A DNA stretch of 64,000 nt from Bacilli bacterium (GCA_017411405.1 JAFQQE010000012.1:86161-150160), one strand, 5' to 3'. Positions 8,710-18,853 are shown, counted from the stretch's first letter. Made by a program: numbers and translations. Notes: generated by a model not told the origin, from the sequence alone.

Positions 8710-8756
8710 TTTTATTTTTTTATGTGTTATAATATTTTTAAGGATGAGTGATAATT

Positions 8757-9743
8757 ATGAAAAAAAGAATATTAACAGGATTACAACCAACTGGAGTTAT
8801 TACATTAGGTAATTATATAGGTGCTATTAAACAAATGATAGAAATGCAAGAAAATTATGAATCTTATATTTTTATTGCAGATATGCATGCTATTACTGTA
8901 AATCAAGATCCTATAGTTTTACGTGAAAATATTAAAAGTTTAGTTGCTTTATATTTAGCTTGTGGGATAGATCCTAAAAAGAATACTATATATATTCAAT
9001 CTGATAATCCATATATCGGAGGTATAAGTTGGATGTTAGAATGTAATTCATATTATGGAGAATTATCAAGAATGACACAATTTAAAGATAAAGCAAAAAA
9101 GAATGCTAATTTTACTTCAGGACTTTTAACTTATCCCGTATTAATGGCTGCAGATATTTTATCTATGGATGCTGATTATGTTCCTGTTGGAGTAGATCAA
9201 AAACAACATGTAGAGTTGGCTAGGGATATAGCAATAAGATTTAATAATAAATATGGGGAAATGTTTAAAATACCTGAACCTATTTTAAAAAAAGTTGGTA
9301 CAAAAATAATGGATTTACAAACACCTGATAAAAAAATGAGTAAGAGCAGTGAAAATCAAAAGGGAGTTATAAGATTATTAGATGATATAGATGTTATAAG
9401 AAAAAAGATAATGTCTGCAACAACTGATTCTGAAATGGTTGTTAGATTTGATCCTGAAAATAAACCTGGAATATCAAATTTAATAAATATATATTCATCT
9501 TTAACTAATAAAAGTATAGAGGAAATAGAAATGGAATTTAAAGATTCTAATTATGGTAATTTTAAAAGTAGAGTTGCTGATATAGTAGTTGATGTAATAT
9601 CTAATATTCAAAATAAATATAATGAAATATTAAATAGTGATTATTTAGATGAAATTTTAGATAGTGGTATGAATAAAAATATAGAAATTTCTAAAGAATT
9701 CTATCAAAAAATGAAAAAAGTTATTGGATTAGGTAGAAATTAA
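8757..9743 (+). CDS. trpS: tryptophan--tRNA ligase
   Basis: GLQPTG..TLGNYIGA, YPVLMAADIL, VPVGVDQKQH, KMSKS. Confidence 0.97.
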   Translation: MKKRILTGLQPTGVITLGNYIGAIKQMIEMQENYESYIFIADMHAITVNQDPIVLRENIKSLVALYLACGIDPKKNTIYIQSDNPYIGGISWMLECNSYYGELSRMTQFKDKAKKNANFTSGLLTYPVLMAADILSMDADYVPVGVDQKQHVELARDIAIRFNNKYGEMFKIPEPILKKVGTKIMDLQTPDKKMSKSSENQKGVIRLLDDIDVIRKKIMSATTDSEMVVRFDPENKPGISNLINIYSSLTNKSIEEIEMEFKDSNYGNFKSRVADIVVDVISNIQNKYNEILNSDYLDEILDSGMNKNIEISKEFYQKMKKVIGLGRN

Positions 9744-9795
9744 TTAGTTTTTACTTGATAATTGTATTATTATTTGATACAATTATTTTGTTCTT

Positions 9796-9872
9796 GGCGG
9801 GATTGGTGAAGTGGTTAACACGCCGGATTGTGGCTCCGGTATGCGTGGGTTCGATCCCCACATCTCGCCCCA
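9796..9872 (+). tRNA. tRNA-His (GTG) with G-1 and encoded CCA
   Basis: Acceptor GCGGGAT/ATCTCGC, anticodon arm CCGGA-TTGTGGC-TCCGG (GTG at 9830-9832), T arm GTGGG-TTCGATC-CCCAC, C73 then CCA. Confidence 0.97.
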
Positions 9873-9882
9873 TTTGAGTATT

Positions 9883-9916
9883 TGGTGAAGCTGAAAGATG
9901 CTTCACTTTTTCTTTT
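9883..9916 (+). terminator. intrinsic terminator after tRNA-His, repeated after every cassette core
   Basis: GGTGAAGC-TGAAAGAT-GCTTCACT followed by TTTTCTTTT; homologous copies near 11166, 12549, 13892, 14982 and 16222. Confidence 0.85.
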
Positions 9917-10254
9917 GAATAAGCCTTATTTTAAGGGCTTTTGATATTTTAAATGATTTTTAATAATAAAAAATTTTAAAAAAGTTATAGAAAAATTGAT
10001 AAAATTAAATTTAAAAATATAATCACTAAAAATTCTTGAATTTAATATATTTTTTTGATGAAAAAATCAATAAAAATAGTAAAAAGTCAAAAAAAGGTCA
10101 AAAAAATCGAAAAAAAAGGTCAAGCACTAGGTCAAGGATTGGTCAAGGAAATCAACTGAAAAAGGCAAATAAAAGTCATATTTAGCTCATTTTTTGGTCA
10201 AAAATAAGTACAGTAAATTTCGTAAACTTAGGTTGTAAAGGGTTTTATAGCATA

Positions 10255-10284
10255 TTTACAAATAATAATATGTGATGATATAAT
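10255..10284 (+). promoter_or_regulatory. sigma-A-like promoter of cassette 1 gene (same layout in cassettes 2 and 3)
   Basis: TTTACA-18 bp-TATAAT with TG extension; also 11516-11545 and 12919-12948. Confidence 0.7.
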
Positions 10285-10312
10285 TTTAAATAGAAAGTAG
10301 GTTGAATTAAAA

Positions 10313-11065
10313 ATGGAAGAAAAGAAAAATAATAAAGGATTAGTTTTGTTAATTGTAATTTTATTAATTTTAGTACTAGGATTAGTAGGGTATATTTTTT
10401 ATGATAAAGTTTTGTTAAAAGACATACCACAAAATGAGAATAATATTACTTCAATTACGACTACAAATATAAAAGAAAGTTATAATGATATAAAAGCAAT
10501 ATTTAAATCTTTGCCTAATAAAAATGATGAATCAGTATTGTGGGATGGTTCCATTAATGATCTTATTAAAGAAGAAGTTAATTTTGACACAGATTTTAAG
10601 AATGTTAGTAAAAATGAACATGGTTTTGATTTAGATTATAGTTGTGTTGAATATAATCCTGAGGATAATGATGAAGGAATAGATAAATGTACTAAATTTG
10701 AAATTGTTATAAATAATCAAAAAAATGAATTATATTCTAATTTTTGGTATCATTTAAGGGTAATGTTAACAAAAGAATATCTAATTACTTATGATGGTAG
10801 TTTTGCAGGAGATTTAAGGATTTTTGATAAGACAGGAAAAGAAATTTTTAATGAATACATAGCTACTGATTTTGGAATTAAATTAGATGAAGAAAATTAT
10901 GTTGATGAAATTTATGGTTATACACCTAGTATTAAAGATAATAAGTTATATTTTGTAAAATATATTAAAGGAAATGAGGATACTTTTGTTATAAGTAATT
11001 TTGATTTAAGTAATAAAAAAGTAACTGAAATTTCAAATTTTAAGGGCGATGTAGGAATAATTTAA
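10313..11065 (+). CDS. cassette 1 cargo: N-terminally anchored surface protein, paralog A
   Basis: MEEKKNNKGL + TM (LVLGLVGYI.YD) + Thr-rich linker + variable acidic domain. Confidence 0.85.
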   Translation: MEEKKNNKGLVLLIVILLILVLGLVGYIFYDKVLLKDIPQNENNITSITTTNIKESYNDIKAIFKSLPNKNDESVLWDGSINDLIKEEVNFDTDFKNVSKNEHGFDLDYSCVEYNPEDNDEGIDKCTKFEIVINNQKNELYSNFWYHLRVMLTKEYLITYDGSFAGDLRIFDKTGKEIFNEYIATDFGIKLDEENYVDEIYGYTPSIKDNKLYFVKYIKGNEDTFVISNFDLSNKKVTEISNFKGDVGII

Positions 11066-11067
11066 AA

Positions 11068-11199
11068 TAACTGGATATATAAAAATATTTGTGCTAAAGT
11101 GATAATAGAGGACAAGATACAAGGGAGCTTCTATTATGTTCACAAAACGCCCCATTAAGATATTTGGTGAAGCTGAAAAAAGCTTCACTTTTTCTTTTG
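11068..11199 (+). repeat. cassette junction repeat (80-bp right arm + tRNA-end core + terminator)
   Basis: TAACTGG..GTGATAATAGAGGACA..GGGAGCTTCTATTATGTTCACAAAA-CGCCCCATT-..TTTGGTGAAGC. Confidence 0.92.
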
Positions 11200-11574
11200 C
11201 AAAAGCCTTTATTTATAGGGGGTTAAGAGTAATTATTATATTTATATCTTTTATAATTATTAATTAATTTTCTTAAAATTATACAAAAAATCTATTAAAA
11301 AATAGAATATCAAAAATCATTAAAAAAATGTTGTTTTTTATGTAAAAATTAGGTAAAAACTTTTTTAGGTCAAAAAAAGGTCCAGGAAGTGGCTAAAAAA
11401 AGTCAAGGTTTAGGTCAGAAAAAAGTCAAAAAAAGGTCAAAAAAAAGTCATATTTCGGTCATAAAAAAGTACTGGACATGTTGTAAAGTAAGATAGTAAA
11501 GGGAATTTTAAAATATTTACAAGAAATAAAACAAGATGATATAATTTTGTTATAGAAAAAGAGGTTGAAAAAAT

Positions 11575-12423
11575 ATGGAAGAAAATAAAAATAATAAAGG
11601 ATTAATTTGGTTAATATTAATTTTAATAATATTAGTATTAGGATTAGTAGGTTATATTGTATATGATAAACTTTTAAAAATTGATAAGACTATTCCTAAT
11701 AATGATGAAACAACAATTACCACAACAACTACTGTAAAAAATGAAATATTCAGAGATAGTGTTTCTGAACTATTTGTTGATTATCCAATTAAAAATGATG
11801 AAACTGTTATTGCAAATGGGTTTATTGATGAAATTATAGAAAAAAATATAAGTCATAAAGAAATATATGAAAATAAAAAAAGTAAATTTATTGGGACAGA
11901 TATTGAATTTACATATAATTCAAAAAAATGTAATATGGAAGAAGTACAAGATGATAATGGGAACATTATCAATTATGAGAATTGGTGTGAAGATATAGAA
12001 ATTAGTATAGATGGTAATCATATTTTTACTATAAATGTACCTGCTAAAGGTCCAGGAGAAGATATTCCGTATATTCTCATAACTAACAACTATATAATTA
12101 GCCAATATGATGGATTTGATGAATTTGATGGAAACGGAGTTATTAAAATATTTAATTTAAATGGTAAATTGATTAAAGAAATAAAAAACACAAGTTATAT
12201 GGGTATGCTAGATGATTGTGGTGATTATAACGAAAATGAAAATACTGTGTTTTATGATAAATATGTAATGATAGATAATAATAAACTATATTATGTTTCT
12301 TATTCTGATGTATGGTTTCCGGGAAATGACACAGAAAATGCAAGTATAAATTACTTAGATTTAGATACTATGACAGAAAACGTTTTAAAGAAATTTAAAG
12401 CAAGATTTACACAACAATGTTAA
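11575..12423 (+). CDS. cassette 2 cargo: N-terminally anchored surface protein, paralog B
   Basis: Same N-terminal ~35 aa as 10313 and 12979; divergent body; shared NNKLYY motif near the C-terminus. Confidence 0.85.
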   Translation: MEENKNNKGLIWLILILIILVLGLVGYIVYDKLLKIDKTIPNNDETTITTTTTVKNEIFRDSVSELFVDYPIKNDETVIANGFIDEIIEKNISHKEIYENKKSKFIGTDIEFTYNSKKCNMEEVQDDNGNIINYENWCEDIEISIDGNHIFTINVPAKGPGEDIPYILITNNYIISQYDGFDEFDGNGVIKIFNLNGKLIKEIKNTSYMGMLDDCGDYNENENTVFYDKYVMIDNNKLYYVSYSDVWFPGNDTENASINYLDLDTMTENVLKKFKARFTQQC

Positions 12424-12450
12424 TTCGTAAAAAAATATAATTAAAATTAA

Positions 12451-12582
12451 TAACTGGATATATGAAAATAAGTGTGATAAAGTGATAATAGAGGACAGAA
12501 ACTAAGGGAGCTTCTATTATGTTCACAATACGCCCCATTTGAGTATTTGGTGAAGCTGAAATAAGCTTCGCTTTTTCTTTTG
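12451..12582 (+). repeat. cassette junction repeat
   Basis: TAACTGG at 12451 lies exactly 80 bp before the core at 12531. Confidence 0.92.
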
Positions 12583-12978
12583 GAAATCCCTTATTTCAAG
12601 GGCTTTTGTCATTTTAAATGATTTTTGATAATAAAATATTTTCAAAAAAAATAGAAAAATTGATAAAATTAAATTTAAAAATAAAATCTCTAAAAATTCC
12701 TTAATTTAATACTTTTTTTGATGAAAAAATCAATAAAAAAATGGTAAAAGTCAAAAAAAGGTCAAAAAAATAGAAAAAAAAGGTCAAGCATTAGGTCAAG
12801 GATTGGTCAAGGAATTCAACAGTAAAAGGCAAAATAAAGTCATATTTAGGTCATTTTTTGGTCAAAAATAAGTACAGTAAATTTCGTAAACTTAGATTGT
12901 AAAGGCCTTTCTAGATTATTTACAAGAAGTAATTAATATTGATATAATAAAAATATAGAAAAAGAGGTTGAAATAAAA

Positions 12979-13749
12979 ATGGAAGAAAAGAAAAATAATA
13001 AAGGATTAATTTGGTTAATAGTAATTTTAATTATTTTAGTATTAGGATTAGTAGGATATATCGTTTATGATATAGTTTTGAAAGTTGATAAAACTAATCT
13101 TACTCCAAATAATACTAGCACAACTACTACAAGTAAAAAGATTATAGAAGAACAAAATTTTACTAAATATCCTGAAAAAAACGATGATAATATTGTTAAT
13201 TTTAACTTGCATGAATTATACGTTAATGAAAATGTTAATTTAATGGAAAATTTTAAAAATTTAAAGTTAAAAAAAGGAAATATAGATTATACACTAAATT
13301 GTACGAAGTATGATGAAGCGCATGTTGAAGCATTTGGATATGCATGTAGTCATTTTGAAATTTTAATTAATAAAGTAAAATTAGAAGATTATTTTAATGA
13401 AGGTTGTGGACATACAAAGCATATTATAATTAATGGAGATTATTTAATATTACAACTTTCCACAGGATGTGATGAAGGTTGTGGATATATTAAAATATTT
13501 AAAAATGGCGAACTTATTTATACTGTAAAAGGTACTACATCTTATTTGGATTTAAATGATTCTTTTGATAATATAATAAAATATTCTAATAACAAATTAT
13601 ATTACTTTATCCAAACAAAAGAAACAGATGTGGCTTATAATGTATTGAAAATGATTGATTTTAATAAATCTGAAATAATAGAAGAAGAATTAGAAAGAAA
13701 AGAAACTGATTATGCTGTTTGCTATGATCTTTCTGGCGAATTTGAATAA
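12979..13749 (+). CDS. cassette 3 cargo: N-terminally anchored surface protein, paralog C
   Basis: Conserved N-terminal anchor, Cys-containing variable domain, NNKLYY motif. Confidence 0.85.
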   Translation: MEEKKNNKGLIWLIVILIILVLGLVGYIVYDIVLKVDKTNLTPNNTSTTTTSKKIIEEQNFTKYPEKNDDNIVNFNLHELYVNENVNLMENFKNLKLKKGNIDYTLNCTKYDEAHVEAFGYACSHFEILINKVKLEDYFNEGCGHTKHIIINGDYLILQLSTGCDEGCGYIKIFKNGELIYTVKGTTSYLDLNDSFDNIIKYSNNKLYYFIQTKETDVAYNVLKMIDFNKSEIIEEELERKETDYAVCYDLSGEFE

Positions 13750-13793
13750 TATTTGTATAAATTGTTAAATGAATAATATATAATTAAAATTAA

Positions 13794-13924
13794 TAACTGG
13801 ATTTACAAAAATATATGTGATAGAGTAATAATAGAGGACAGAAACTAAGGGAGCTTCTATTATGTTCACAAAACGCCCCATTAGGCAATTTGGTGAAGCT
13901 GAAATACGCTTCACTTTTTTCTTT
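13794..13924 (+). repeat. cassette junction repeat
   Basis: TAACTGG at 13794 lies 80 bp before the core at 13874. Confidence 0.92.
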
Positions 13925-14164
13925 GTCATAAAAAAGTCAAAAAATGGTCAACTTTTGGTCATGAAAAAGTCTTGAAAAGGTCCTGAAAAAGTACAGAAAA
14001 AGTCAAAAATTTATAAATAAAAGTCAGGTTAAGGTCAAAAAAAGGTCATAAATAAGTCAAAAAAAGGTACTGGACTTTTTGTAACAAATTTTTTTTAAAA
14101 CAAAAAATTATTTCTTTTAAATCATTTTTATGTTAAAATATAAAATACAAATGGAGGTTTTGAA

Positions 14165-14677
14165 ATGGAAATAATTAATAAAGAATATGTAAAAATAGAT
14201 AAATTTGATCTTTTTATCGAGCAAGTAAGAGCATCAACAGAAGATAATAAATTTAATATAAATTTTTTTCAAAATTTAACACGTATTATCTATGATTATG
14301 AAAAGAAAAATCATAGATCTATAAATGAACTATATATAAAAACTGATAGTCTATGTTATAAAAAATTACAAAAGACTATACAATTTTCTATAAAAAGACA
14401 AACAGTAATAAATGCTATAATATTTGCTTTATTAAATAATGAGACAAATATTGCATTACAGTTAATAAATCATATTAAACAAGATAAAATTTTTCCTAGT
14501 CAATTGGATAATTTATTAGATTATGTTTTTATTAATGGAATGAATACAAATGATTTTTTCAATGGTGAAAAAGATAAATTTATTTATAATGATACTAAAA
14601 ATGAAATTGAAATAGGTAAAATTTATAATGTAAATACAATTAAATCGACAGGACAAACTAAAAAATTAATTAAATAA
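14165..14677 (+). CDS. cassette 4 cargo: hypothetical protein
   Basis: GGAGG RBS, TG-TAAAAT -10 upstream; unrelated to the cassette 1-3 cargo. Confidence 0.75.
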   Translation: MEIINKEYVKIDKFDLFIEQVRASTEDNKFNINFFQNLTRIIYDYEKKNHRSINELYIKTDSLCYKKLQKTIQFSIKRQTVINAIIFALLNNETNIALQLINHIKQDKIFPSQLDNLLDYVFINGMNTNDFFNGEKDKFIYNDTKNEIEIGKIYNVNTIKSTGQTKKLIK

Positions 14678-14736
14678 AAATATTTTATACTAAAAGTAGT
14701 ATTTTTGACAGACTAAATATATATAATATTATGTGG

Positions 14737-14880
14737 AGTCAAAAATTGGGCAGAAAAAGGTCAAACTACAGGTCATGTTTTGGTCAACCTTTAGTCATGA
14801 GTTGGGCAAGGAATGGTCATGAAGTGGTCACACAAAAGTCAAGATTTGGTCATTTTTAGGTCAAAAAAAGGTCAAAAAAA
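14737..14880 (+). repeat. 11-bp-periodic (G/A)GTCA direct-repeat array, 13 copies
   Basis: GTCA/GGCA at 14738, 14749, 14760, 14772, 14783, 14794, 14805, 14816, 14827, 14838, 14849, 14860, 14871. Confidence 0.9.
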
Positions 14881-14932
14881 TCTAGACTAAATTTATATAA
14901 TGCGGTATAAATTTTATTGTAAGGATAATTTG

Positions 14933-15016
14933 ACAATAGAGGGCTTCTATTATGTTCACAAAACGCCCCATTAAGATATTTGGTGAAGCTCTAGTAAGCT
15001 TCACTTTTTCTTTTGC
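14933..15016 (+). repeat. cassette junction repeat, short variant
   Basis: AATAGAGGGCTTCTATTATGTTCACAAAA-CGCCCCATT(14964)-AAGATATTTGGTGAAGC; lacks the TAACTGG part. Confidence 0.9.
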
Positions 15017-15215
15017 ATAAAAAAGTCAAAAAAAGGTCAAGTTTTGGTCACGAAAAAGACCTGAAAAAGTACCGAAAAAGTCCAGAAAAAGGCAAAAAAT
15101 TATAGAAAAAAGTCAAGACTAGGCAAAAAACAAGCAATTTTTGATCAAAAAAATGTCAAAAAAAGTTATGTGAGTATTGTTTGTGATATAATAATTTTAG
15201 AAAAGGAGAAATCAC

Positions 15216-15758
15216 ATGAAAAAAACAAGTAAAAAGAATGTTAGACGCGCCCTATTATCTATAACTGTTGGGATATTAGTATGCATGCCACTTGCAGTCA
15301 TAGAGGCATGGCCAGTGGTAATACTTTTCGGTGGTATTTGTAGTATTTTTCCAGGTGCGGTAATTCTTGATAAATTAGGGCTAATAGAATTAGTTGATGT
15401 AAAAAGATATAAAAAAATTGTTGATGAAAAAGGTAATATATTATATGATGATTATGAAAATGTAAAAAAAGTAGATGCGAACGATTATGAAAAAGAATTG
15501 AGATTTGCTGACGAAAGAAAAAGAGCAAATATATTATTTGAAGATACATACAAAAAGCCAATTATTACTAAACAAACAAGAGAAAATATTTTAAATTCTC
15601 CTAATTTATATTCAAATTGCGATATTAGAGTTAGGATGGGAAAATTTTATACTGACGAAGAAAAAGAAAAGTATATAGAAGAAAGCTTAAAAAGACCTTT
15701 ACCTGGTGAAGAAGGACTTAAACTAATAAAAAAGTGGAAACCAAGAAATAATAAGTAA
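15216..15758 (+). CDS. cassette 5 cargo: hypothetical protein with two N-terminal TM segments
   Basis: AAAGGAG RBS, TATAAT upstream, hydrophobic residues ~13-60. Confidence 0.75.
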   Translation: MKKTSKKNVRRALLSITVGILVCMPLAVIEAWPVVILFGGICSIFPGAVILDKLGLIELVDVKRYKKIVDEKGNILYDDYENVKKVDANDYEKELRFADERKRANILFEDTYKKPIITKQTRENILNSPNLYSNCDIRVRMGKFYTDEEKEKYIEESLKRPLPGEEGLKLIKKWKPRNNK

Positions 15759-15797
15759 TATTTTGACATCTTATAATATTTATGATATATTGAATAC

Positions 15798-15908
15798 GTC
15801 AAAGAAATTTGCATAAAATAAAAAAGGATACATTTGATTGCGAGAATCAGATGTTTCCCTTAATGGATTGCATCTGAAATCAACAGTTGTTGAAATCAGA
15901 TGTTTTTA
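15798..15908 (+). ncRNA. putative antisense (antitoxin-like) sRNA
   Basis: TTGACA-17-TATATT promoter at ~15764-15792; terminator CATCTGA..TCAGATG-TTTTT ending ~15907; convergent with a small hydrophobic ORF. Confidence 0.5.
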
Positions 15909-15986
15909 TTATTTATACAGTAAGGTGATTACTATAAAAAATAATAGTAGATTTATTATAAATAGAGAAAACTCTCTTTTAGTCAT
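15909..15986 (-). CDS. 25-aa hydrophobic peptide, type I toxin-like (MTKREFSLFIINLLLFFIVITLLYK)
   Basis: AAAGGTGGTG RBS; minus-strand promoter TTGTCG-17-TATAAT at 16090-16062; single TM; absent from the ORF track. Confidence 0.65.
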   Translation of the reverse strand: MTKREFSLFIINLLLFFIVITLLYK

Positions 15987-16123
15987 AATTAACCACCACC
16001 TTTCATTTATGTTTATAAACGAAAGGGAAGGCATCTGATATTTTCAAATGTATCCAAATAAATTATAGCAAACATTTGTATTTTCGACAATAAGAATCTA
16101 TAAAAAAATATAATTAAAGTTAA

Positions 16124-16254
16124 TAACTGGATATATAGAAATATATGTGATAAAGTGATAATAGAGGACAGGAACTAAGGAAACTTCTGTTATGTTCACA
16201 ACATGCCCCATTAACATGTTTGGTGAAGCTGAAATAAGCTTCATTTTTTCTTTG
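16124..16254 (+). repeat. cassette junction repeat, more diverged
   Basis: TAACTGG at 16124 lies 80 bp before the variant core TGCCCCATT at 16204. Confidence 0.88.
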
Positions 16255-16496
16255 GCGTAAAAAAGTCAGAAAAAACGTCAACTTTTGGTCACGAAAAAGA
16301 CCTGAAAAAGTACTGGAAAAGTCCAGAAAAAGTCAAAAAATTAGAGAAAAAAGACAGGTTTAGGTCAAAAAAAAGGTCAAAAATAAGTCATAAAAAAGTA
16401 CTGGACTTTTTGTAACAAATTTTTTTTTAAATAAAAAATAATTTCTTTTAAATCATTTTTATGTTAAAATATAAAACACAAACGGAGGTTTTGTAT

Positions 16497-17246
16497 ATGA
16501 ATATAGAATTTGTATCTAAAGATAATGAAGCAAAAGTGTTTGATGAAAATAACAATGGTAAAAAAATTAATAATACTGATAATATTGAAGAAATATTAAT
16601 AAAAGAAAATGTAATTGAAAACATGGAAAAGGAAATTGAACAATTAAAAAAAGATATTAATAATTATAATAAAAGTCGAAGAATTCCAACTTGGTTACCT
16701 TTAACTATGTTTACAATACTACCTTTAATTATTAATCCTATTATAATGAATGAACTTGGTGTATGGAATGATATAATATCTAATACTATTCTTGGTATAA
16801 ATAAGTTAGGACCATTACTAACTGTTTCAATTACCGGTTTTATGATAATACCTGGGTCTTTAATGTCATTATCATTTTTATTAGCAAATAAAGAAAGAAA
16901 TAAATATCAAAAAGCTAGAGAAATAAAATTAGAATTTTTAAAAAAAGATATTGTTAATCAAAGAGAATTATTAAATGAATTAAAAAACAACAAAACTTTA
17001 AGTGAAGAAAATAAAGATTTTAAAGTTCAAAAAGTTAATGATTTAGAGCAATTAAAAAGTTTAAGAGCATGTTTATTATTATGTGAACATATTGCTTACA
17101 ATGAAAAGAAATGGTATAAATATTATCAAGAAGGTAAGTTAGCTAAAAAAATGGAAAAATATTGGAATGAATCTGGTGTAGAAATGGCTAAAGATTATTT
17201 TGAAGAAAAAGGACCTATATTAGCCAAAAAATATGATAAAAAATAA
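16497..17246 (+). CDS. cassette 6 cargo: coiled-coil/two-TM hypothetical protein
   Basis: Start moved to ATG 16497 after GGAGG; upstream arm nearly identical to that of cassette 4. Confidence 0.75.
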   Translation: MNIEFVSKDNEAKVFDENNNGKKINNTDNIEEILIKENVIENMEKEIEQLKKDINNYNKSRRIPTWLPLTMFTILPLIINPIIMNELGVWNDIISNTILGINKLGPLLTVSITGFMIIPGSLMSLSFLLANKERNKYQKAREIKLEFLKKDIVNQRELLNELKNNKTLSEENKDFKVQKVNDLEQLKSLRACLLLCEHIAYNEKKWYKYYQEGKLAKKMEKYWNESGVEMAKDYFEEKGPILAKKYDKK

Positions 17247-17461
17247 AAAGTTTTATTTAGAAAAAGATAAAATATGAATAAGGTCATAATTTGGTCAAAA
17301 AAAGGTCATGCAGTAGGTCATTTTTTGGGCAACCTTTGGAAAATAAAAAGTTATAAATATAGTTTAAAAAAGATAACACAATATTAAAAAATATGATTAT
17401 AATTACGCTCTAATAAGGTATAATTTTTTTTATATGTGTTAAATTAGTATAGAGGTAATAT

Positions 17462-18853
17462 ATGAAGAATAATTTAACTAAATATAATAATAAAAGAAAT
17501 TTTGATAAAACTAAAGAACCTAGAGGTAAAAAAGAAAGTAATAATAAAAAACTTAGATTTGTTGTTCAACATCATATTGCAAGAAAAGATCATTATGATT
17601 TGAGATTAGAATACGATGGAGTATTAAAGAGTTGGGCAGTACCTAAAGGACCTAGTTATAATATTAAAGATAAACGTTTATCAATTTTAGTAGAAGATCA
17701 TCCATTAGAATATCGTAATTTTGAAGGTGTTATACCTAAAGGTGAGTATGGTGGTGGTACTGTCATGTTATTTGACGAAGGAACTTATGAACCTTTATAT
17801 GACTTTAAGAAAAGTTTTAAAGATGGAATGATAAAAATTATATTATATGGAAAAAGATTAAAAGGTGTTTGGACTTTAGTTCATTTTAAAGAAGATAATT
17901 GGTTGTTAATCAAGGAAAAAGATGAATATATGGAATTTAGTGATATTAAAACTATTAATACAAGTATTAAAAGTGGTAGAACAATGGAAGAGATTGAAAA
18001 TGGTATAAAAAATAATACTGAAGATGTTATAGAGGGTGTTAAGATAAGTAATCCTGATAAGATAATTTATAAGAAACCAAATATTACTAAATTGGAAATA
18101 ATTAAGTATTATAAAGCTGTTTCAAAAAGAATGTTGCCATATTTAAAAAATCGTGTTATAAGTACGGTTAGATGTCCTGATGGAATAGATGGTGCTTCTT
18201 TTTTTAAAAAACATTTTGAAAATGAAAGAGAAGGTTTATGTAAAGTAGATTTAAAAAATATGAGTAGTAAAGAAGATGATTATTATTTTCTAACAAGTGT
18301 AAAAGGTTTAATAAGTGAAGTTCAAATGAATAGTTTTGAATTTCATATTTGGGGAAGTAGAGTGGAAGATTTAGAAAATCCTGATATATTGGTTTTTGAT
18401 TTCGATCCTGATGAAAATTTAAATTTAAAGAAATTAAGAGATGGAGTTAGAGATTTAAAAAGTATATTAGATGAATTGAAATTAAAGTCTTTTTTGAAAA
18501 CTAGTGGTGGTAAAGGTTATCATGTTTTGGTTCCAATTAGTGGGGTAAATTGGAAAGAATTTCGTTTGATTGCGAAAAATATTGCAGAATTAATGGAAGC
18601 AAAATGGCCTTTAAAATATACAAGTAATATTAGAAAACATAAACGTAAGAATAAAATATTTATTGATTGGGTCAGAAATACTAGGGGAGCTACTAGTGTT
18701 GCACCATATTCTTTAAGACTAAGAAATAAAGCAACTGTGTCCTTTCCAATCTCTTGGAATGAGTTAGATAAAATTAAACCGAATAGTATAACTTTAAAAA
18801 AAGCATTAGAAAAAATAAAAGGAAAAGATCCTTGGAAAGGTTTTTATAAATAA
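17462..18853 (+). CDS. ligD: LigD-type 3'-phosphoesterase + primase-polymerase fusion lacking the ligase domain
   Basis: FVVQHH..HYDLRLE..LKSWAVPKGPS (PE domain); SNPDK, VFDFDP, KTSGGKGYH, APYSLR (Pol domain); no KxDG ligase domain. Confidence 0.88.
   Translation: MKNNLTKYNNKRNFDKTKEPRGKKESNNKKLRFVVQHHIARKDHYDLRLEYDGVLKSWAVPKGPSYNIKDKRLSILVEDHPLEYRNFEGVIPKGEYGGGTVMLFDEGTYEPLYDFKKSFKDGMIKIILYGKRLKGVWTLVHFKEDNWLLIKEKDEYMEFSDIKTINTSIKSGRTMEEIENGIKNNTEDVIEGVKISNPDKIIYKKPNITKLEIIKYYKAVSKRMLPYLKNRVISTVRCPDGIDGASFFKKHFENEREGLCKVDLKNMSSKEDDYYFLTSVKGLISEVQMNSFEFHIWGSRVEDLENPDILVFDFDPDENLNLKKLRDGVRDLKSILDELKLKSFLKTSGGKGYHVLVPISGVNWKEFRLIAKNIAELMEAKWPLKYTSNIRKHKRKNKIFIDWVRNTRGATSVAPYSLRLRNKATVSFPISWNELDKIKPNSITLKKALEKIKGKDPWKGFYK

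Follow-up and report, generated by a model that had tools for sequence, protein, structure and literature searches.

Downstream of a tRNA-His gene, the genome of a small gut bacterium (G000; 1,039,562 bp, or 1.04-Mb, in 29 contigs, the assembly being 78% complete) carries six tandem units of 1.09-1.38 kb. Our analysis of the 64,000-nucleotide stretch of DNA that contains them (hereafter, the window) confirmed that this array is real. We give about an even chance to the reading that the array consists of six integrase-less mini-cassettes, CIME-like and integron-like at once, which inserted site-specifically by a recombinase acting in trans and were partly expanded by duplication. The units resemble mobile elements in miniature, dependent on a recombinase borrowed from larger ones, because related cassettes with other genes occupy the same spot in other genera.

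A tandem array at the 3′ end of tRNA-His

The first core copy, CGCCCCATT at 9866-9874, is composed of the last 7 bases of tRNA-His and 2 bases beyond. The 9-bp tRNA end YGCCCCATT is found in the window at 9866, 11148, 12531, 13874, 14964 and 16204, always on the + strand, with core-to-core spacings of 1282, 1383, 1343, 1090 and 1240 bp; 0.13 copies were expected, and none of 100 shuffles reached six. These are the positions and unit sizes reported in an earlier note on this DNA, recovered here far above shuffled sequence. The core occurs nine times in the G000 genome, and the hairpin GGTGAAGC..GCTTC(A/G) follows only the six array copies. All genome-wide matches to this hairpin motif (6/6) and to the right-end motif (5/5), as well as all GGTCA clusters (6/6), fall inside the array. 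The features of the locus are as follows.

9797..9872, + strand: tRNA-His (GTG), found by ARAGORN and by the Rfam tRNA model (61.5 bits)
9866..9907, + strand: junction J0, with core 9866-9874 and terminator hairpin 9884-9907, from alignment
9866..11147, + strand: unit 1 (1282 bp), with core, hairpin, second hairpin 9921-9940 and an A/T-rich stretch
10085-10200, + strand: left arm of unit 1, 7 phased GTCA motifs
10255-10284, + strand: promoter-like site of unit 1, between left arm and cargo
10313..11065, + strand: cargo 1, membrane-anchored, 250 aa, without an assigned family; cargo 2 and 3 are its paralogs
11066-11147, + strand: type A right end of unit 1, directly after cargo 1
11066..11189, + strand: junction J1-2, with type A right end, core 11148-11156 and hairpin 11166-11189
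11148..12530, + strand: unit 2 (1383 bp), with 8-motif phased left arm 11368-11461 and promoter-like site 11516-11545
11575..12423, + strand: cargo 2, 282 aa, paralogous to cargo 1 (36% identity)
12446..12572, + strand: junction J2-3, with type A right end, core 12531-12539 and hairpin 12549-12572
12531..13873, + strand: unit 3 (1343 bp), with 8-motif phased left arm 12749-12864 and promoter-like site 12919-12948
12979..13749, + strand: cargo 3, 256 aa, paralogous to cargo 1 (34% identity)
13786..13915, + strand: junction J3-4, with type A right end, core 13874-13882 and hairpin 13892-13915
13874..14963, + strand: unit 4 (1090 bp), with short left arm 13935-14059 of 9 phased motifs
14165..14677, + strand: cargo 4, 170 aa, no family
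14737-14874, + strand: right arm of unit 4, 11 phased GGTCA motifs
14875-14963, + strand: type B right end of unit 4, after the right arm
14875..15005, + strand: junction J4-5, with type B right end, core 14964-14972 and hairpin 14982-15005
14964..16203, + strand: unit 5 (1240 bp), with left arm 15024-15115, cargo and type A right end 16104-16203
15216..15758, + strand: cargo 5, 180 aa, N-terminal membrane segments, no family
15776-16006: separate module of unit 5, about 230 bp, between cargo 5 and the right end
15909..15986, − strand: ORF of 25 codons in the unit 5 module, hydrophobic and with a strong ribosome-binding site
16104..16245, + strand: junction J5-6, with type A right end, core TGCCCCATT 16204-16212 and hairpin 16222-16245
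16204..17344, + strand: unit 6 (about 1140 bp), with left arm 16264-16390, cargo and truncated right arm 17282-17320
16497..17246, + strand: cargo 6, 249 aa from an ATG behind a ribosome-binding site

Organization of the units

The general order of a unit is core, terminator hairpin, phased GGTCA arm, own promoter, one cargo gene and conserved right end, the conserved non-coding backbone amounting to ~0.4-0.5 kb per cassette. The uniform plan proposed in the earlier note holds for units 1-5 and fails for unit 6, which has neither right end nor core: its right arm breaks off at about 17320-17344, just ahead of ligD, and homology to the ligD flank of a congener, G010, picks up again at 17415. 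Likewise, each unit has one main cargo gene as claimed, except that unit 5 holds a second small module besides.

Every unit starts with a terminator; 10 terminator-like sites were found in 9700-17500, six of them the unit hairpins, compared with 0.9 in shuffles. GGTCA occurs 36 times on the + strand of the array and its complement TGACC never, against 6 and 2 occurrences, respectively, in the other 56.5 kb of the window. The arm motifs are spaced by 11 (29 times), 12 (6), 22 (8), 33 (4), 32 (2), 21 (1) and 23 bp (1), and are thus helically phased. When the whole G000 genome was scanned for 11-bp-phased 5-mers, the array and a single unrelated site were matched. In units 4 and 6 only, a GGTCA arm is also present on the right side, units 1-3 and 5 having the left one alone; repeated arm motifs flank both sides of the attB-shared core in units 4 and 6, in the single cassettes of G010 and L061 described below, and in the viral contig L076. 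The phased arms may act as an operator array, or may provide a scaffold on which an accessory protein of recombination assembles.

The promoter-like sites of units 1-3 match at 11/12 positions and have a TG extension, and units 4-6 have extended -10-like boxes, as judged by eye. Units 4-6 have left arms in common, and the promoter and 5′ UTR of unit 6 are homologous to those of unit 4 up to the start codon. The junction repeats are 130-300 bp long, with 80-90% identity.

The division of the cargo into three divergent paralogs and three unrelated proteins, as first described, was borne out. Cargo 1-3 are 34-36% identical and share a nearly invariant N-terminal membrane anchor of about 35 residues; cargo 4, 5 and 6 are unrelated. 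None of the six proteins had a Pfam match above the cut-off, and none could be assigned to a PADLOC family or to a PHROG family with a known function; the cargo 6 protein, also with no family above cut-off, has a coiled-coil and two central membrane segments. Pfam and PHROG searches revealed no integration or transfer genes inside the units, nor were fragments of recombinase or phage genes found there with Pfam, PHROG and PADLOC. The ~230-bp module of unit 5 recurs inverted in L059, and the region of its 25-codon ORF has a contig depth 4-5 times higher in this bin; we infer only that this ORF resembles a type I toxin.

Single cassettes and empty sites in relatives

We compared the interval from trpS through tRNA-His to ligD among relatives, as the earlier note had proposed, and found single cassettes with different cargo at some loci and empty sites at four. 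In G010, of the same genus, one cassette lies at tRNA-His; its arms are homologous, its cargo is unrelated and the 8-bp core is duplicated. Read from trpS, the locus continues with tRNA-His, core, hairpin and left arm, then a C39-like cargo gene (Pfam E 1e-6), a right arm of GGTCA repeats, the type B right end, AGCCCCAT, the native terminator and ligD. In another genus (L061/G288), the same arms surround a 362-aa cargo, with CGCCCCAT on either end. The L061 locus has only the 76-bp tRNA in common with the window locus, and its duplicated core adjoins an unrelated native flank. In a third single cassette among the relatives the left arm differs and the distal core is degenerate. L070 has a 1.1-kb cassette with two genes, and G156 retains a decayed empty unit. 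At 4 of the 15 loci of the genus the tRNA-His site is empty, the tRNA being followed by an unrelated terminator and then by convergent ligD. Direct att-core copies that bound an element at the 3′ end of its target gene are therefore present both as the six window cores and in the G010 and L061 single cassettes. Together with the four empty congeners, these single cassettes support the proposal that the units are discrete cassettes inserted at the tRNA-His core.

Hairpin, right-end and arm motifs were found only within the array in G000, and the same arms were found with other cargo in relatives. Both arms of unit 4 are homologous to those of the single cassettes, with 81-85% identity to G010 and 80-88% to L061. 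Overall, arms of G000 and L061 are 77-88% identical, compared with 67-69%, in partial alignments, for the Xer recombinase loci of the same genome pairs. The homology among unit 4, unit 6 and L061 ends at the start codon, and in three genomes three ORFs unrelated to one another follow one and the same set of left arm, promoter and ribosome-binding site. As judged from these alignments, the backbone is conserved across genera and the cargo is unrelated.

Recombinases and a phage contig associated with the same core

In agreement with the earlier claim that no integrase lies in or beside the array, Phage_integrase and Resolvase profiles had no match on the window's contig, and the 10 ORFs flanking the array include no recombinase family. 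The five PF00589 matches in G000 are all on other contigs. The two serine recombinases of G000 are 27-28% identical to that of G433 (see below), and its tyrosine integrases use other att sites; neither a second att copy nor a cognate recombinase was found in the 78%-complete assembly. GTCA clusters are absent from the 26 integrase loci of 5 other cassette-bearing genomes, and no GGTCA arm lies beside a tyrosine integrase in G000 or at those loci. The search for a recombinase physically linked to this core yielded only a large serine recombinase, in relatives, and no tyrosine integrase with GGTCA arms.

In relatives, the same core is used by an 8.8-kb element that encodes a large serine recombinase. 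In G005:C17, tRNA-His is followed by CGCCCCAT, an ORF of 96 aa and a serine recombinase of 578 aa, which is intact; next come cargo, the type C right end and TTGCCCCAT, and beyond them the native flank also seen in G010. Right ends of types A and C lack a GGTCA arm on the P side. G433 has an element of this kind, with its recombinase split into 396 + 159 aa. Behind it lies a hairpin-type cassette, and the right ends of element and cassette are 81% identical over 135 bp. A PNPOx-like ORF is shared between the L070 cassette and the G005:C17 element, with 90% identity over exactly the ORF. Close homologs of the G433 recombinase are encoded in 3 of the 5 other cassette-bearing genomes and in neither G010 nor G434. 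Internal-deletion derivatives of the serine-recombinase element exist in relatives: beside a GNAT gene, G003 retains no more than 31 aa of the 96-aa ORF and 41 aa from the tail of the recombinase, and G012 and G008 have kept the left end alone.

The attP of a large serine recombinase is expected to span about 50 bp, its dyad symmetry being centred on the crossover. In the attP reconstructed for the G005:C17 element, the core is flanked on both sides, at about 15-25 bp, by an 11-bp dyad (9 of 11). The cassette junctions contain AGCTTC-N37-GAAGCT, centred within 1 nt of the core's GC; this symmetry may be incidental because its right half belongs to the terminator stem.

On the 25.6-kb viral contig L076, structural genes, holin and endolysin are followed by a GGTCA arm, type B right end, core, hairpin and ligD. 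Its left end is missing, and the arm may not be the phage's own. Of five related phage records, 3 carry a serine recombinase gene whose product has 34-47% identity to that of G433, none encodes a tyrosine recombinase and none contains GTCA clusters; in one, the recombinase module abuts a tRNA 3′ end.

Origin of the array

In the proposed scheme, each cassette would be one accessory gene with its own promoter in a conserved backbone, and the terminator hairpin would restore tRNA-His termination after insertion. The cassette family probably entered tRNA-His by site-specific recombination within CGCCCCAT, as the core duplication and the empty sites in relatives indirectly suggest. The recombinase would be supplied in trans by larger elements using the same core, candidates in relatives being the 8.8-kb serine-recombinase element and a temperate phage with GGTCA arm, right end and core. 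Further insertions, or Campbell-type recombination in which the conserved backbones pair, may account for part of the stack's growth, and tandem duplication (units 1-3) for another part. The G000 array would now be an orphan with its distal attR deleted, which would leave unit 6 fixed. Against this scheme, close homologs of the G433 serine recombinase are absent from G010 and G434, and none in G000 is cognate. Contigs assembled from public runs showed no circle, no excision product and no presence or absence of units at strain level. Furthermore, serine integrases recombine attP with attB alone and are not known to require accessory arms, and tandem stacking with phased arms therefore suits a serine recombinase poorly.

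Tyrosine recombinases are the ones for which tandem accretion is natural, and the junctions might instead be attP sites of a heterobivalent tyrosine integrase, with the GGTCA repeats as arm-type (or Xis/Cox-type) sites and serial insertion at attL/attR. The 8-bp identity block, the two-sided arms (units 4 and 6, G010, L061, L076) and their single orientation and 11-bp phasing fit such an enzyme. We nevertheless consider this improbable, given that no such gene lies beside copies of the arms in G000 or at the integrase loci of the 5 other cassette-bearing genomes, that 0/5 phage relatives of L076 encode one, and that right ends of types A and C lack a P-side arm.

Alternatively, each unit could be a static relic, the leftover ends and one gene of a full-size tRNA-His element or prophage, that never moved as a 1.2-kb unit. 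Decay of larger elements is directly seen in relatives (the split recombinase of G433; the G003, G012 and G008 fragments), so some cassettes could be deletion relics; the decayed G156 unit and the eroded distal end of the array itself point the same way. For the whole array this is unlikely, though not negligible: it requires at least six independent integrations, each followed by a deletion sparing exactly one gene, its promoter and both ends, and it is at odds with the absence of gene fragments or phage-family remnants from the units and with the common left arm, promoter and ribosome-binding site ahead of three unrelated ORFs in three genomes. Units 1-3 could also be plain tandem duplicates because they have arms, promoter and signal anchor in common. 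Extended to the array, this would confine site-specific recombination to a single ancient insertion, after which units multiplied in tandem by unequal crossing-over at the junction repeats and homologous recombination in the arms replaced their cargo. The clear paralogy of units 1-3, with near-identical arms, promoter and N-terminal anchor, and the shared left arms of units 4-6 agree with this history, for which the junction repeats would suffice as substrates. We regard it as doubtful, as it accounts neither for single same-arm cassettes at tRNA-His in another genus nor for the source of the unrelated cargo.

Comparison with known systems

The array resembles integrons and CALINs, the latter being integrase-less integron cassette arrays, in its stacked ~1 kb one-gene units with a putative recombination site at each junction, its unrelated, mostly orphan cargo and its growth beside a fixed site. 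In contrast to integrons, the platform is a tRNA gene and not attI, no IntI-type recombinase is encoded on the window's contig or among the 10 flanking ORFs, and every cassette has its own promoter or promoter-like site and terminator, integron cassettes being promoterless and transcribed from a shared Pc promoter. Five junctions folded as DNA gave z-scores of -0.96 to -2.55, only the 8-9-bp terminator hairpin being recurrent and stable, unlike attC sites, which as imperfect palindromes fold in single-stranded form.

IMEX elements and pdif modules are likewise recombinase-less modules between short recombination sites, mobilized by host XerC/D. A junction 12-mer matches the putative dif of G000, on C28, at 11/12 positions. 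An Xer module was rejected, as the junction has no complete two-armed site, the left arm being absent, and insertion is at the tRNA end and not at dif.

Tandem stacks and long phased arms are, to our knowledge, not features of serine-integrase sites. The likeness to large-serine-recombinase tRNA elements lies in relatives, where a 578-aa recombinase is encoded beside attL at the same core; the window has no such gene. In tycheposons of Prochlorococcus, as outlined in 10.1101/2020.12.28.424599, successive integrations push older elements inward and leave degenerate remnants; tycheposons have their own tyrosine recombinase and several genes, whereas the array units have no recombinase and one gene.

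The array shares recombinase-less units, direct att-core copies and tandem arrangement at a tRNA 3′ end with CIMEs (cis-mobilizable elements), which are usually many kb long and found singly. According to the passages of PMC5704250 that deal with them, CIMEs of streptococci carry no integration or transfer genes, keep attL and attR, lie in tandem at a tRNA 3′ end, move only via a neighbour's recombinase, and are described as decayed ICEs or IMEs. The earlier note had recognised no known family; going by those passages, the idea has a precedent, as integrase-less elements accreting in tandem at tRNA 3′ ends are known as CIMEs. The array departs from them in its six 1.1-1.4 kb units with one promoter-equipped gene each, its cross-genus backbone, its freedom from gene remnants, and its candidate helper, which would be a serine-recombinase element or a phage and not an ICE.

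Organization of the array

The window lies within contig C17 of a 1.04-Mb bin (G000; ~24% G+C, 29 contigs, 78% completeness). The annotated features of the interval are as follows.

8748–9743, trpS, one neighbour of the tRNA-His interval
9797–9872, tRNA-His, flanked by trpS and a LigD-like gene
15909–15986, minus strand, 25-codon hydrophobic ORF with a strong ribosome-binding site, flanked by hairpins
17462–18853, LigD-like gene with phosphoesterase and primase-polymerase domains

An earlier note had described six copies of the tRNA-His end, each with a hairpin and a GGTCA arm, and this description was confirmed by scans for the core, the hairpin and the phasing of the arms. The core, YGCCCCATT, is composed of the final seven bases of tRNA-His and two further bases; it occurs six times in the window, always on the plus strand, against 0.13 expected copies. 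An identical terminator hairpin is found nine bases past every core copy (6/6), and the six hairpins of the array are the only matches to the hairpin pattern in the genome. The interval has ten terminator-like sites in all, six of them these hairpins, against 0.9 in shuffled sequences. Past the hairpin, the left arm contains 5–9 copies of (A/G)GTC(A/C) set in A-runs, and units 4 and 6 possess an additional arm 3′ of the cargo. The spacing of arm motifs is 11, 22 or 33 bp (±1) in all 51 intervals, and the 36 GGTCA copies of the array lie on one strand only. When the whole genome was scanned for 11-bp-phased 5-mers, the array and one unrelated site were recovered, the latter outside the window (contig C25, ~91.7 kb; six copies of ATCTT in 130 bp).

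Each unit has a promoter-like site, which in units 1–3 matches 11 of 12 positions and carries a TG extension, followed by a strong ribosome-binding site and then one ORF. A further promoter-like site at 14705–14732 (TTGACA, 16-nt spacer, TATTAT; 11/12) is located directly 3′ of cargo 4 and directed into the right GGTCA arm of unit 4. Alignment of the right ends revealed a conserved type A in units 1, 2, 3 and 5 and a type B in unit 4. Unit 6 breaks off within its right arm, and likeness to the ligD flank of the congener G010 restarts at 17415; the distal junction has thus been deleted. An Rfam search of 9000–18500 (E ≤ 1) matched the tRNA alone, and the junction is therefore not a known RNA family.

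Cargo genes

The products of cargo genes 1–3 are paralogs with 34–36% identity, and their first ~35 residues, a membrane anchor, are nearly invariant. Cargo 4–6 are unrelated to cargo 1–3 and to one another. None of the six cargo proteins matched Pfam above the cut-off, a PHROG family of known function or a PADLOC family, and a protein atlas search returned sub-threshold leads only. Unit 5 also holds a ~230-bp module (15776–16006) that includes the 25-codon ORF and resembles a type I toxin-antitoxin or a small mobile repeat. The module is present twice, inverted, in another stretch, L059 (2181–2413 and 2504–2993). In the public sequencing run X1, the bin holding the module has 4–5 times the contig depth of its neighbours.

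tRNA-His loci in the genus and in other genera

We surveyed 16 genomes of the genus, comparing species with species. A tRNA-His match was present in 14 of them, yielding 15 loci (two in G005). Hairpin-type cassettes with GTCA arms occupy three loci (G000, G010 and G005:C20), and five contain a serine-recombinase element, intact in G005:C17, or its left-end remnant (the others being G003, G013, G012 and G008). Four loci (G004, G011, G001 and G007) are empty sites with an unrelated terminator and a convergent ligD, and the remaining three (G009, G002 and G015) are otherwise occupied or unclear.

In G010, the interval from trpS/tRNA-His to ligD is occupied by exactly one cassette, with a C39-like peptidase as cargo. 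The arms of this cassette are, on the left and right respectively, 81% and 85% identical to those of unit 4, and at its far end stands AGCCCCAT, after which comes the native terminator. Because the native flank of G010 is the same as the sequence past the right end of the G005:C17 element, the hairpin comes with the cassette in this lineage.

Scanning one genome per species for the core plus hairpin yielded 19 stretches, 10 from A/T-rich relatives and 9 chance matches in unrelated high-G+C genomes. L061 (locus L024 of G288, a member of another genus) is a single 1.48-kb cassette with a 362-aa cargo and CGCCCCAT at each end; its arms, of the unit-4/6 type, are 77–88% identical to those of the window. 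The homology among unit 4, unit 6 and L061 spans the arm, promoter and ribosome-binding site and ends at the start codon. By comparison, the Xer recombinase loci of the genome pairs G000/G431 and G005/G434 align only partially, at 67–74%, so that the non-coding backbone is at least as conserved as these housekeeping genes. The 1.1-kb cassette of L070 contains two small genes; its left arm is of another kind, its right end is type A-like, and its first gene is also the first gene of G005:C20 (79% identity over 511 bp). The unit of G156 is decayed and empty, its left arm running straight into the right end. The core is duplicated around single cassettes, congeners have empty sites, and the backbone is conserved across genera while the cargo is unrelated.

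Two further arrangements were observed at tRNA-His. The ligD gene is co-directional with the tRNA in G000 (17462–18853), G010, G005:C17 and the viral contig L076; it is convergent and directly adjoins the tRNA in G004 and G011 (L035 and L036), and sequence similarity indicates the same for G001 and G007. The region behind the tRNA has thus undergone inversion or rearrangement within the genus. In L063 (G432; 150–1100 as oriented), a 0.8-kb one-gene insert with no GTCA arm is placed between the tRNA-His end and a second GCCCCATT with the native hairpin, so that a second kind of tiny insert uses the same core. Its 204-aa product may, judging by its sequence, be GNAT-like.

Recombinases associated with the core

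There is no recombinase in or beside the array. G000 encodes five tyrosine recombinases (two Xer-size and three larger) and two large serine recombinases, none of them on the window's contig, and the genome has no second copy elsewhere of the core plus hairpin, the right end or the arm. Among G000 and five other cassette-bearing genomes, neither GTCA clusters near the larger tyrosine integrases nor a tyrosine integrase tied to the arms or core was found. The most widely distributed cluster of tyrosine integrases (~370–395 aa), present in G000, G010, G431, G432 and G435 and absent from G005, G433 and G434, was rejected as the helper because the G000 copy has its own att site, with GGTACC repeats and a TTCAGGGGG core. 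A small integrative element outside the window (L003; contig C13, 28.9–32.2 kb) encodes an Xre-type repressor, a 78-aa excisionase-like ORF, a 329-aa P-loop protein and a 371-aa tyrosine integrase, and is bounded by a hairpin and TTCAGGGGG, with GGTACC repeats at either end. The array was also ruled out as an Xer-dependent module, since its junctions contain no complete Xer site. A 28-bp site with the Firmicutes dif layout, found outside the window on the minus strand of contig C28 (position 125), is likely, judging by its sequence, the chromosome dimer resolution site. A 12-mer of the cassette right end matches the right arm of this site at 11 of 12 bases.

Of the recombinases found, one alone, a large serine recombinase, is physically linked to the tRNA-His core. 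It is intact (578 aa) in G005:C17, where the core leads into a 96-aa ORF, the recombinase gene, ~6 kb of cargo, a type C right end and TTGCCCCAT, in this order. The G433 copy of this element, with the recombinase split (396 + 159 aa), is directly followed by a hairpin-type cassette encoding a 726-aa leucine-rich-repeat protein, and the right ends of the cassette and the element are 81% identical over 135 bp. A PNPOx-like ORF of the G005:C17 element recurs in the L070 cassette with 90% identity, the likeness being confined to the ORF. The serine-recombinase elements use the same core as the cassettes and share ends and cargo with them. Close homologs of the G433 recombinase (42–97% identity) are encoded in G005, G431 and G435 and absent from G010 and G434. 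The junction contains a 6-bp dyad, AGCTTC-N37-GAAGCT, centred within 1 nt of the dyad centre of the reconstructed serine-element attP; the right half of this junction dyad, however, is part of the terminator stem.

Viral contigs and wider searches

In viral contigs, the right-end-plus-core pattern matched three stretches, of which L076 alone was relevant, and an arm 21-mer matched only L076. This 25.6-kb viral contig, a 47%-complete fragment, contains structural genes, a holin, an M23/LysM endolysin and four small genes, and ends with six phased GGTCA motifs, a type B right end, the core, the hairpin and ligD. Its structural genes are 63–81% identical to those of five other viral records, none of which has GTCA clusters or a tyrosine recombinase (0/5). 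Three of the five encode a serine recombinase 34–47% identical to the G433 enzyme, together with homologs of the ORFs next to that enzyme, and in one record the recombinase module adjoins the 3′ end of another tRNA. L076 itself lacks a PF00589 match, and the G433 recombinase module has no homolog in it; our searches did not recover the phage's left end, a 456-aa L076 protein used as query matched the same phage only, and G000 has no prophage related to L076.

The same right-end-plus-core pattern matched 47 stretches of metagenome contigs, none relevant: no GTCA clusters lay alongside, and the AT-rich matches were unrelated. The junction sequence had no match among deposited phages or plasmids. 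Viral contigs gave no match to the serine-element left-end pattern and only one relative, 26% identical, of the G005:C17 recombinase.

A GGTCA x3 pattern matched 10 of 401 genomes of the family, with arrays only in G000, G010 and G288. In four others, the pattern lay in triple 11-bp repeats ahead of a 430-aa gene; the remaining matches were coding repeats, as were the control-pattern matches in G010 and G186. In the four loci concerned (L208, L211, L212 and L214, from four other genera of the family), three perfect GGTCA-bearing 11-bp tandem repeats are set between the promoter of the 430-aa gene and, in three of four, a tRNA 3′ end. From its N-terminal sequence, the gene product is a putative Schlafen/AlbA-type regulator. 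These loci could represent another GGTCA-binding system, or the protein could belong to the family that reads the arms.

Three public runs from one study contained 96–97% of the array's sampled words, and 17 others contained 7–16%. Four public runs, available as assembled contigs, were compared at 88% likeness. Most contig joints had sides of 20–28 nt in A/T-rich sequence and were set aside, as were the uncovered parts in runs X4–X6. In run X5, one contig (depth 5.6; 15 differing letters and 12 gaps per 400) joins a type A right end to a unit-5-like start; at this position in the window, unit 4 ends in type B. This joint hints at another unit order in another organism and is not evidence of excision.

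Origin of the stack

The earlier note had proposed serial mobile cassettes at tRNA-His. The duplicated core, the empty sites and the cross-genus backbone support this proposal in part; units 1–3, however, probably arose by duplication. We put the chances that the stack is one of mini-cassettes at about even. The cassettes or their immediate ancestors would have inserted by site-specific recombination within CGCCCCAT, with the recombinase acting in trans. Further insertions, Campbell-type homologous recombination between backbones and, for units 1–3, duplication would have enlarged the stack. A phage or element integrated beside the cassettes could carry them, as in the cis-mobilisation of CIMEs (cis-mobilizable elements without integration or transfer genes). 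Several other genera (L066, L071 and L075) have sequences like the cassette-borne hairpin as their native tRNA-His flank, and an inserted cassette may therefore rebuild a target-like site at the tRNA. Such a site could permit repeated insertion beside the tRNA.

The association evidence points to a serine recombinase. To our knowledge, serine integrases join attP only with attB and do not need accessory sites. The long phased arms and the stacking would better suit a tyrosine integrase with accessory proteins, but no such integrase was found, and a strict tyrosine-integrase version of the mini-cassette reading, with which it overlaps, appears improbable. We consider equally improbable that duplication and homologous exchange account for the stack as a whole, the likely duplicates being units 1–3. 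That the units are deletion relics is unlikely; if they are, the locus still documents clearly that several types of element have repeatedly used a single tRNA site.

A tentative extension of the mini-cassette reading, which we regard as possible but doubtful, is a self-standing system analogous to integrons, with the recombinase on a phage or small element and the GGTCA arms as a scaffold. In such a system, small-genome gut Bacilli of different genera would capture miniature circles, each an att backbone with a single gene, stack them next to tRNA-His and pass them to one another. Since each cassette brings the core and a native-like hairpin and may regenerate the target, the stack would grow outward from the tRNA. 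The 11-bp-phased arms would form a nucleoprotein scaffold for a putative recombination or packaging protein.

Significance and relation to known systems

If active, the mini-cassettes would be smaller than any integrative unit with cargo so far described at a tRNA site, and would constitute a second, non-integron route for stacking single accessory genes at one locus. The host lineage comprises 1-Mb gut Bacilli known from metagenomes only, and the link to serine elements and a phage suggests a way for genomes this small to gain and reassort surface and accessory genes. The conserved core, hairpin and arm provide a simple handle for finding such arrays, and the phased GGTCA arms offer a clean starting point in the search for a putative DNA-binding partner.

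The array is not an integron: unlike integrons, the locus lacks IntI and attC-like folding, and every unit has its own promoter and terminator. The closest concept is that of CIMEs and of tandem accretion at tRNA 3′ ends (PMC5704250). Tandem tycheposons with partial tRNAs between them offer a parallel (10.1101/2020.12.28.424599). One-gene cassette stacks at tRNA-His were not described in any text returned by a full-text literature search. The novelty lies in the form, one-gene cassettes of 1.1–1.4 kb with a conserved 0.4–0.5-kb backbone, six of them stacked, as well as the occurrence of the family in several genera and its link to serine-recombinase elements and a phage.
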